This document shows, one piece after another, positions 5,279 through 5,992 of a DNA stretch of 23,803 nucleotides (position 1 is its first letter; each line of letters starts with the position of its first letter). The translations under genes and the position numbers were made by a program. Source of the stretch: a virus (taxonomy: Duplodnaviria > Heunggongvirae > Uroviricota > Caudoviricetes); the IMG/VR virus record IMGVR_UViG_2534682161_000021, positions 1-23,803 of that record, one strand, 5' to 3'. Below the pieces are notes generated by a model that did no database searches, had not been told where the DNA came from, and was given only the letters and a program-made list of their open reading frames with translations.

Positions 5279-5992
5279 TTAACGCACTCTGATAGTATTA
5301 ATTTCAAAATCATTAATATTTCCGCTATTAAATATAACGAATTTCTTACCCCCACTCCTGTATGATTTCGATAACACCAGACGATCATCATAACGCGCAA
5401 TAATGTAATACCATACATTCTCATAGTGGATCGCCTGATATTCCCTCTTAAACTGTGGTTTGTACCAACCGGCAATAAGAGAGAATGCCCAGAAATAAAT
5501 CATAAACCCAGCCATCATGAACTCAATTCGGTGATGGCGAATAAAAGACATTTCCGAAAAACATTTGACTGAAACAAGTCTTCTTCCAGACCTGACAAAA
5601 AGCGTGATTGTAAAGGCAGCAAGAATGCAGAAAATCAGTACATCTGGCTCAACATGCTGATGAATTACCGAAAACTCCAGAACAGGTGGAATAAAAAGCA
5701 GCAATATCGCGAGAAAAAGCCGGATAAAACTCAAATTTTGTATATTGCGCTTTTGTTTTATGCCCAAAAAGAAAACAATACCAACTCCCCATCCAATAAG
5801 GAATATAACGATAACTGTCACAGCATAAAACAAACTTCGTGCAACATCATCGACACCAGCCCCGACAACCCACCATGGAAAGCCATAGTAAAATGAAGTA
5901 CCCCATCCATAGAAATAAGCGCTTCCCCATCCTAGACAGCCCATATAAGCAACAAAAAGTGAAGAGTTTCTGAGCAGAGCACTGTCATTCAT
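5279..5992 (-). CDS. polytopic membrane protein (237 aa) in a strongly AT-rich segment
   Basis: ATG at 5992; aromatic- and Gly-rich N-terminus followed by 4-5 hydrophobic helices and a hydrophilic C-terminal tail. AT-rich codon usage is unlike neighbouring phage genes. Confidence 0.5.
   Translation of the reverse strand: MNDSALLRNSSLFVAYMGCLGWGSAYFYGWGTSFYYGFPWWVVGAGVDDVARSLFYAVTVIVIFLIGWGVGIVFFLGIKQKRNIQNLSFIRLFLAILLLFIPPVLEFSVIHQHVEPDVLIFCILAAFTITLFVRSGRRLVSVKCFSEMSFIRHHRIEFMMAGFMIYFWAFSLIAGWYKPQFKREYQAIHYENVWYYIIARYDDRLVLSKSYRSGGKKFVIFNSGNINDFEINTIRVR

Follow-up and report, generated by a model that had tools for sequence, protein, structure and literature searches.

What does a gene for a small membrane protein do directly behind the late antiterminator of a lambdoid prophage, and is it there for the phage or for the bacterium? 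We ask this for one open reading frame (ORF), 5279..5992 on the minus strand, in a stretch of 23,803 nucleotides that makes up IMG/VR record IMGVR_UViG_2534682161_000021 (Caudoviricetes; hereafter the window). The ORF starts with ATG, ends with TAA and encodes 237 amino acids (aa). A preliminary description of the window, made without database searches, took the product for a polytopic membrane protein encoded in a moron position, and named superinfection exclusion, abortive infection and envelope modification as its possible functions.

Sequence comparison securely identifies the gene as a prophage-borne representative of the TfpB/STM1630 family (PF27470). A known but uncharacterised family gains a member; this is not a new kind of system. 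The preliminary description overlooked this catalogued family and its chromosomal, non-phage members in Pasteurellaceae, Neisseriaceae and Moraxella. It also overlooked an experimentally studied Salmonella orthologue that is tied to host colonisation. For the function we lean, at somewhat less than even confidence, towards a moron-borne, non-catalytic, periplasm-facing inner-membrane protein that alters the host envelope. The gene would then be a lysogenic-conversion factor, not a lysis or structural protein.

A prophage member of the TfpB/STM1630 family

The gene and its likely ribosome binding site are:

5279..5992, minus strand: TfpB/STM1630-family inner-membrane protein, 237 aa (ORF call; phrog_1521; PF27470 on all homologues)
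5998..6001, minus strand: Shine-Dalgarno-like GGTG, 5 nt upstream of the ATG (direct sequence reading)

In PHROGs, the window protein falls into phrog_1521, an entry without a function (E = 1.4e-85, residues 17-237). A search of 5.8 billion proteins returned homologues that carry a precomputed PF27470 label in 104 of 104 cases. A second source names PF27470 'TfpB', and RefSeq calls one close E. coli prophage copy 'STM1630 family protein'. The PF27470 assignment is made through the labels on these homologues; local copies of Pfam and NCBIfam matched the window protein to no model, and local Pfam-A, NCBIfam and PADLOC scans gave only noise for the window protein and for distant members.

How widespread is the family? 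A profile search of 1.84 billion representative proteins yielded just 71 members, all of them TfpB-like. Full-length members (230-260 aa) in this search come from Neisseria, Actinobacillus, Gallibacterium, Avibacterium, Pasteurella, Mannheimia and Klebsiella. A scan of one bacterial genome per species adds Moraxella bovis, M. lacunata, M. equi and M. oblonga as well as Aggregatibacter, Glaesserella, Rodentibacter and Conchiformibius. The window protein is 56% identical to the product of gene CPT_434_68 of phage 434, 48% identical to STM1630 of Salmonella and 29% identical to TfpB of M. bovis (over 233 aa, E = 1e-26). The preliminary description had allowed that the gene might turn out to be kin to a housekeeping membrane protein. 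This does not apply: the product is no housekeeping protein.

The Salmonella homologue in our set (P0069) is flanked on one side by sseJ and on the other by an ORF of 133 aa in the position of steB, and its cluster at 90% identity holds 2,681 sequences. STM1630 is listed as a 717-bp 'putative membrane protein' beside sseJ, and a published STM1630 deletion primer encodes NSSMLLAYLGGLGWG, which is the sequence of P0069. The shared synteny with sseJ and steB and the primer sequence thus identify P0069 as STM1630.

In M. bovis, a 261-aa homologue lies between two inverted C-terminal segments of pilin. In M. lacunata, the homologue lies between piv with a partial pilin gene and a complete pilin gene, and is shortened to 195 aa. 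We take both to be the published tfpB ORF of the pilin inversion region, from which PF27470 has its name. At the M. bovis locus (L016, 18..1883), tfpB points in the same direction as one of the two inverted pilin segments. Inversion should therefore put tfpB by turns downstream of, and convergent with, the expressed pilin gene, so that tfpB expression may be phase-variable. Searches for literature on PF27470, or on tfpB together with Moraxella, Shigella or eltAB, returned nothing useful, and the searchable literature holds nothing on the function of Moraxella TfpB.

The ORF is a genuine, constrained gene. Over 43 distinct full-length prophage alleles, the ratio of nonsynonymous to synonymous substitution rates (dN/dS) is 0.16, the mark of purifying selection. 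This ratio drops to 0.05 in codons 1-50 and is at most 0.24 in any segment. Across the 43 alleles, dN/dS gives no sign of diversifying selection.

The conserved parts and their predicted location

Which parts of the protein does the family keep? Two regions stand out:

5843..5992, minus strand: transmembrane (TM) helix 1 and periplasmic aromatic loop, codons 1-50, the family signature (most invariant columns; dN/dS 0.05)
5282..5461, minus strand: C-terminal five-strand beta domain, codons 178-237, predicted periplasmic (AlphaFold2, with a predicted local distance difference test (pLDDT) score of ~77-86 there; positive-inside rule)

The preliminary description had pointed out an unusual aromatic and glycine-rich N-terminal stretch. 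This stretch (residues 26-46, YFYGWGTSFYYGFPWWVVGAG) proved to be the best-conserved part of the whole family. The complete signature in codons 1-50 reads S-S..A-Y..G-W..S-A-Y-x-Y-G-W-G...Y-G-F-P-W-W, and its loop is acidic and nearly free of K and R. In the window protein, A-Y-x-Y-G-W-G ... Y-G-(F/Y)-P-W-W followed by A-R-S-L occupies residues 25-54. The signature columns are invariant or near-invariant in 34 enteric sequences and are largely retained in Neisseria, Pasteurellaceae and Moraxella.

The four to five TM helices of the preliminary description become five in the topology predictions, on which hydropathy, the positive-inside rule and AlphaFold2 agree. They span residues ~12-33, 51-78, 91-110, 118-134 and 157-177, and a beta domain of ~55 residues follows. 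AlphaFold2 gave a poor model from 34 close homologues (pLDDT 61) and a better one from 65 diverse sequences (pLDDT 76.9; predicted template modelling score, pTM, 0.69). The AlphaFold2 helices lie at residues 4-36, 47-78, 89-111, 116-135 and 155-181, with short helices at 142-153, and the five strands of the beta domain lie at 184-235. By prediction, then, the protein has the architecture of the family: ~230-260 aa, five TM helices and a small C-terminal beta domain.

Charge statistics for the positive-inside rule, taken over 65 homologues, give the likely orientation:

Residues 34-50: loop 1, net charge -1.5 (hardly any K or R), predicted periplasm
Residues 79-90: loop 2, net charge +2.0, predicted cytoplasm
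Residues 135-156: loop 4, net charge +2.3, predicted cytoplasm

From these loop charges we infer a cytoplasmic N-terminus and a periplasmic C-terminus. In this orientation, the C-terminal domain and helix 1 with loop 1, which are best conserved, are predicted to face the periplasm. Variation is greatest in helices 3 and 4 and in the cytoplasmic loops.

The only residues conserved throughout the family are A, Y, G, P and F. Across the family alignment, none of the classically catalytic side chains (Asp, Glu, His, Lys, Ser, Cys) is conserved, which makes an enzyme unlikely. A profile search of the sequences in the PDB matched no solved structure, and none of the 5,027 defence-system models in PADLOC matched at E <= 10.

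A probable moron cassette directly behind Q

The surroundings of the ORF, all on the minus strand, contain the following elements:

6247..6918, minus strand: Q-type late antiterminator (Q82-like), directly upstream of the ORF (77% identity to phage 434 Q; RefSeq antitermination protein Q in the identical prophage)
6211..6239, minus strand: PR'-like late promoter TTGCAA-17-TATATT (promoter scan and alignment with the phage 434 region; a sequence-level assignment)
~6135..6160, minus strand: tR'-like intrinsic terminator AAAACCCGC-GACCGA-GCGGGTTTT with U-run (-14.2 kcal/mol, z = -3.71)
6031..6060, minus strand: promoter-like element of TTGACT (6055-6060), an 18-nt spacer and a TG-extended TATGTA (6031-6036), ~38 nt upstream of the ATG
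~5190..5250, minus strand: decayed second copy of tR' after the ORF (53 invariant positions over 91-base stretches compared with the window's own intact tR' region, 6085..6175, minus strand)

In alignment, the hairpin at 6135..6160 coincides with a terminator that the phage 434 record annotates. Q-modified polymerase would need to read through this terminator-like structure. E. coli MB07081 carries an identical prophage, which gives the gene order beyond the ORF. A small ORF comes first and is followed by genes for a DNA methyltransferase, a hypothetical protein, a TerB-family protein and DUF3927, and then by two holin genes, a GH108 endolysin gene and bor. According to this order, the ORF is the first gene past the late terminator and lies five genes from the holins. 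The preliminary description had placed it between a Q-like terminator and the lysis genes. The first half of this placement stands, since the ORF is the first gene after Q, PR' and tR', but the lysis genes are five genes away.

The decayed copy of tR' behind the ORF shows how the present arrangement may have come about. It matches the intact tR' that directly follows Q in the Shiga toxin (Stx) phage 1720a-02. In that phage, Q and tR' lead directly into the same small ORF and methyltransferase that are found downstream in the window. The decayed copy marks a recombination joint, at which a module of Q, tR' and the ORF meets a module of the small ORF and the methyltransferase. No hairpin fold in the decayed copy (5190..5250) was better than shuffled controls (z = +0.26), and no terminator of the ORF's own is evident there. 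We rejected the idea that the cassette is generally bracketed by tR' repeats: this holds in the present prophage lineage, but not in AHB19 or 434.

To describe prophage copies we used the best 80 of 187 IMG/VR viral contigs that carry the gene. Among these 80, 76 contain the promoter-like element in the form CTTGAC[TG]-N18-TATG at a fixed distance of ~40 nt upstream of the start codon. In 21 distinct versions, TTGACT is conserved to 98% and TTTGTTATG to 95%, compared with 75% for the spacer and 72-75% for the flanks. The element is kept behind different Q types and also on a plasmid copy from enterotoxigenic E. coli (ETEC) that has no Q gene. This pattern suggests that the element acts as a promoter of the cassette. 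Salmonella STM1630 does not use TTGACT-N18-TATGTA; it has another, mapped promoter ~220 nt upstream of its start codon.

Does the gene behave as a moron? Its base composition sets it apart, as the preliminary description had claimed. GC content is 0.389 in the ORF and 0.366 at its third codon positions, against 0.464 for the entire window and 0.48-0.52 in the flanking genes (Q 0.484, RusA 0.501, DUF968 0.524, methyltransferase 0.494). In all enteric hosts that we examined, the family gene has a low GC content (0.30-0.41) relative to its surroundings.

The gene also comes and goes. It is missing from Stx phage 1720a-02 and from phage 434B. In 434B, the Q-to-lysis segment has been replaced by DLP12 DNA and the TfpB-like gene is gone, and yet the phage is grown as virions and forms plaques (PMC9119081). 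Hence, the TfpB-like gene is dispensable for lytic growth. Nor is it a conserved structural part of the phage.

The suspicion of a moron in the slot between Q and lysis is thus borne out by deviant GC content, patchy distribution, occurrence behind several Q types, the promoter-like element and absence from 434B. The best reading of the locus is a moron cassette, consisting of the promoter-like element and the ORF, that was inserted directly after Q, PR' and tR'.

Copies in prophages, plasmids and chromosomes

Where else does the gene occur? Of the phages in 50,697 phage records, 434 and 2B8 alone have it. Among complete E. coli genomes, 1,197 of 5,426 (~22%) carry a copy of the family. Most prophage copies are tied to Q: with four reference Q types searched for within 900 bp upstream of the gene, 68 of the 80 loci have a Q gene directly upstream (45 Q82-like, 23 of a second type). 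The other 12 loci have none of the four reference types within 900 bp upstream. Seven of these 12 were inspected, and there the gene is preceded by other Q-like ORFs, an insertion sequence (IS), a hok-like gene or, in one locus (L110), a stx1-like gene pair. In total, the family gene follows at least three different Q types, and a Yersinia copy lies behind a Q of 125 aa.

The L110 locus is IMG/VR contig 2859677112_000002. Within 2540..3766, genes for a stx1-like StxA (315 aa) and StxB (89 aa) lie directly upstream of a TfpB-like gene that is 68% identical. This contig may be the Stx1e-type phage reported from Enterobacter cloacae.

Intact copies also persist outside prophages in enteric bacteria. 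They are present on 156 plasmids, 106 of which are Shigella plasmids (the records listed are the ~145-230 kb virulence plasmid pINV). On the ETEC plasmid pUMNK88_Ent (L043, 2987..5714), a copy lies 866 bp from eltA and is divergent from eltAB, with STb and EAST1 near. This copy still has the promoter-like element, and the arrangement suggests that the DNA around the heat-labile toxin (LT) genes comes from the post-Q region of a prophage. The Salmonella copy has no phage nearby and is flanked by sseJ and steB. The copy in Citrobacter rodentium adjoins a split lpxR at apparently the same chromosomal site as in Salmonella. A Klebsiella copy adjoins IS3, two-partner secretion genes and an STb toxin gene.

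Copies in Pasteurellaceae and Neisseriaceae are solitary chromosomal genes, mostly amid housekeeping genes. Read by eye from ORF translations, one case each lies beside a likely cdt operon (Glaesserella), beside RTX-toxin export genes and beside an adhesin gene. Many variants of the chromosomal homologues outside the enterics are shortened: to 169-199 aa in Avibacterium (L004-L006), 181 aa in Mannheimia (L019) and 195 aa in M. lacunata (L021). These chromosomal genes hint at frequent inactivation or phase variation outside the enterics.

Near icd, a distant Klebsiella member (L011/L012, 4176..7741) has as neighbours an AAA_23/AAA_21 ATPase gene, its partner gene for 167 aa and a short SRAP-family ORF. 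The group resembles a small island of the defence type, at a site where prophages classically integrate.

What is known from Salmonella

Experimental data exist for STM1630. The gene has no assigned function and is missing from S. Typhi, and signature-tagged mutants are attenuated in calves and chicks (PMC6785131, Text S1). Very few transposon insertions are found in it, which was ascribed to binding of H-NS rather than to essentiality (PMC6785131, Text S1). In strain 4/74, STM1630 is expressed in macrophages and in medium that induces Salmonella pathogenicity island 2 (SPI-2), and its deletion leads to higher intramacrophage fold-replication; in strains of sequence type 313 (ST313), it is silenced through two single-nucleotide polymorphisms in the -10 box (PMC6785131, Text S1). 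A transcription-profiling study grouped STM1630 with SPI-2 genes (PMC2639726).

What does the protein do?

For the window protein we propose the following sequence of events. The protein would span the inner membrane five times, starting from a cytoplasmic N-terminus. The aromatic and glycine-rich loop after helix 1 and the C-terminal beta domain would be exposed to the periplasm. There they may bind, without catalysis, to a conserved envelope component or to the outer face of the inner membrane. Such binding would change how the envelope behaves, which could matter to a bacterium in an animal host. In the lysogen, its own promoter would drive weak transcription of the gene, with H-NS probably keeping it silent until the cell encounters conditions like those in a host. 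After induction, the gene would be transcribed strongly through Q-dependent read-through.

We prefer a host-directed over a phage-directed role for three reasons. Beside virulence loci, the gene is retained where phage genes are missing. In Salmonella, the data indicate an interaction with the host. The predicted periplasmic face is constrained and shows no diversifying selection.

Several points weigh against this interpretation. The experiments concern STM1630 and not the E. coli prophage protein itself. Deletion of STM1630 in D23580 has no effect, and the phenotypes are modest and partly inconsistent. A possible lead on motility did not hold: an STM1630 mutant was hypermotile in one screen, but STM1630 is not among the seven mutants with altered motility that the abstract of the follow-up names. 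Adjacency to virulence genes may simply reflect the shared ancestry of a 'post-Q' cargo region together with hotspots for mobile elements. From its constant position as first late gene, the gene could instead have its role in the lytic cycle. Confidence in the structural model is moderate (the pLDDT and pTM given above). As for the promoter-like element, its -10 hexamer TATGTA does not have the usual final T, and the consensus scan of the window by the promoter tool omitted TTGACT-N18-TATGTA.

Alternatively, the protein could act against other phages. It might exclude superinfecting phages or have another anti-phage function, in that it stops incoming phages, either in the lysogen or in a cell already infected, at DNA entry or at a different step at the inner membrane. 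An inner-membrane protein in the accessory slot of a prophage, with its own promoter-like element, fits such a role, and the known examples P22 SieA, HK97 gp15 and T4 Imm are similarly small membrane proteins without enzymatic motifs. The distant Klebsiella homologue beside the AAA_21/AAA_23 ATPase gene pair near icd can be read as part of a defence island, and the Moraxella copy sits in a type IV pilin locus (pili are phage receptors). Exclusion is a serious rival, but we consider it less likely. No PADLOC model matched, and most copies in Pasteurellaceae and Neisseriaceae are solitary genes amid housekeeping genes. An arms race with phages should leave a fast-evolving surface; here the periplasmic parts are the most conserved ones across distant bacteria, with dN/dS between 0.05 and 0.24. 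Furthermore, STM1630 is induced under SPI-2 conditions and in macrophages, and is not constitutive.

A late lytic function would make sense of the position. The gene directly follows Q, PR' and tR' in most prophage copies, behind several unrelated Q types, and belongs to the same transcription unit as the holins and the endolysin. The protein could tune the timing of lysis, ready the membrane for the holin or stop progeny from re-adsorbing to, or re-injecting into, the lysing cell. Against this idea, phage 434B still lyses and makes plaques without the gene (PMC9119081). In addition, only 3 of 50,697 phage records have the gene, five other genes separate it from the holins in the window, intact plasmid and chromosomal copies have no lysis genes near them, and there are non-phage homologues in Pasteurellaceae, Neisseria and Moraxella. 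Hence a lytic function is improbable.

Equally improbable is a role as an accessory in the assembly of surface appendages. Like TfpY or FimB, the protein would then serve pilins, or other envelope proteins that are secreted or assembled, as a chaperone or adaptor in the membrane. The name TfpB suggests this idea. In Moraxella, four species have the homologue in or beside the pilin locus, and tfpB of M. bovis, co-directional with one pilin segment, could switch its expression with pilin phase. Size and membrane/periplasmic-beta layout resemble those of TfpY and TfpZ (PMC11841053), and the hypermotile STM1630 mutant would also fit. Yet pilin neighbours are limited to Moraxella: pilin signal motifs occur within 6 kb in Moraxella loci alone, 24 other loci have none and the window contains no pilin gene. 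We therefore rejected pilin adjacency as a trait of the family. For TfpY-like proteins, the published description gives three helices and a periplasmic domain that is larger and of mixed alpha/beta type. The 71 profile matches in 1.84 billion proteins are unlike the wide distribution reported for TfpY. Moreover, tfpB is shortened in M. lacunata, and the motility abstract, as said, does not name STM1630.

An orphan immunity protein against a membrane-acting bacteriocin or a contact-dependent toxin is the least probable of these ideas, because no context that we examined has a consistently adjacent cognate toxin gene and a periplasmic motif strongly conserved over distant genera is ill-suited to toxin-specific immunity, even though a small, polytopic inner-membrane protein without a catalytic motif, with a mobile, AT-rich gene that occurs on plasmids, prophages and islands, would suit such a role.

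A lysogenic-conversion factor that alters the host envelope thus remains our preferred reading. Its boldest extension, which we regard as speculative and rather doubtful, concerns the whole family. TfpB/STM1630 proteins might be an unrecognised class of mobile, non-enzymatic inner-membrane factors that shuttle between the post-Q slot, virulence plasmids and chromosomal islets, land repeatedly beside toxins and effectors (Stx1-like toxin, LT, STb, a likely Cdt operon, SseJ/SteB) and, through a conserved target in the periplasm or the inner membrane, tune the envelope, the release of toxins and effectors or intracellular growth in the course of infection. If this were true, the prophage copy would be a true lysogenic-conversion gene with a new mechanism.

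Why does this matter? One family now links a gene of phage 434, STM1630, the copies on Shigella pINV and beside LT in ETEC, and TfpB of Moraxella. About one in five complete E. coli genomes carries it, and its prophage slot is the one that also holds Shiga toxin genes. Should the protein prove to be a conversion factor or an exclusion protein, a prophage cargo gene that is very common but has been ignored would be explained; if no effect can be measured, the product is an ordinary hypothetical membrane protein. The predicted topology and the conserved motif that would face the periplasm provide a concrete and easily cloned target for experiments.

Other features of the window

The rest of the window contains further accessory genes and RNAs:

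~2177..2690, minus strand: TerB-family gene and then DUF3927 gene, just upstream of the holins
9220..9394, minus strand: sok antitoxin RNA in a hok/sok-type region (Rfam match, 108 bits; the identical prophage has an incomplete Hok/Gef gene in RefSeq)
11587..12937, plus strand: zeta-toxin-family gene and then a hypothetical gene for 210 aa, both running counter to the nin/Q region
18984..19035, plus strand: DicF small RNA (Rfam, 76.7 bits)

DicF belongs to immunity regions of the Qin/Kim type, and its presence suggests a prophage related to this group. The zeta-toxin-family gene and its 210-aa neighbour may form a cargo pair, either for defence or of the toxin-antitoxin type. In the phage 434 record, DUF3927 bears the name TciB; in the window, the TerB-family gene beside DUF3927 is presumably the counterpart of TciA. 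A part for our ORF in a 'Tci' system was rejected, as the TerB-family and DUF3927 genes of the window are not this ORF. In the literature, the names TciA, TciB and TciC were met in work on phage P1 and P1-like plasmids alone.

Comparison with known systems

Phage 434 has a similar locus. Its gene CPT_434_68 ('putative membrane protein') also lies directly after a Q82-like Q, PR' and tR' and has the same promoter-like element. The order lpxR - ylcG - Q - TfpB-like gene - DUF3927 - holin is common to phage 434 and an O157:H7 prophage. In both of these, DUF3927 (TciB-like) and then the holin directly follow the gene, and lpxR is just upstream of Q. In the window, the small ORF, the DNA methyltransferase, the hypothetical gene and the TerB-family gene are interposed before DUF3927.

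STM1630 (SL1344_1560) has 238 aa, the same architecture and a similarly AT-rich gene (GC 0.367). It differs in location, being part of a chromosomal islet without a Q gene nearby, where the SPI-2 effector genes sseJ and steB flank it. Moraxella TfpB has the AY-x-YGWG...YG-x-PWW signature, the hydrophobic core and the C-terminal Y-Y-I-L...I-L beta region in common with the window protein. Its gene is chromosomal and lies beside piv between inverted pilin segments, whereas the window copy is in a prophage.

TfpY, TfpZ and FimB are the pilus accessory proteins to compare. TfpY and TfpZ have 235-245 aa, and the group has three TM helices and a periplasmic part with a mixed beta-sheet and a three-stranded antiparallel sheet (PMC11841053). 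They resemble the window protein in length, in the N-terminal membrane part and in a C-terminal periplasmic domain that contains beta strands, and the Moraxella member of our family lies in a pilin locus. They differ in having three helices and a larger, other periplasmic domain, compared with five predicted helices and one five-stranded domain. No relationship in sequence between the two groups was detected: the TfpB family profile retrieved TfpB-like proteins alone from the 1.84 billion proteins, and no direct comparison of profiles with the TfpY type was made.

Among exclusion proteins, P22 SieA, HK97 gp15, T4 Imm and lambda RexB are small, prophage-expressed inner-membrane proteins without enzymatic motifs. 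Neither in sequence nor in fold did we find similarity between them and the window protein.

Finally, the classical lambdoid morons (stx, bor, lom, lpxR, nanS-p) have products that are known: a toxin, outer-membrane proteins and esterases. The window gene differs from them in encoding an inner-membrane protein, with no evident terminator. It resembles them in lying in the same accessory-cargo region, in deviant base composition, in variation between presence and absence and in a promoter-like element that may be its own promoter.

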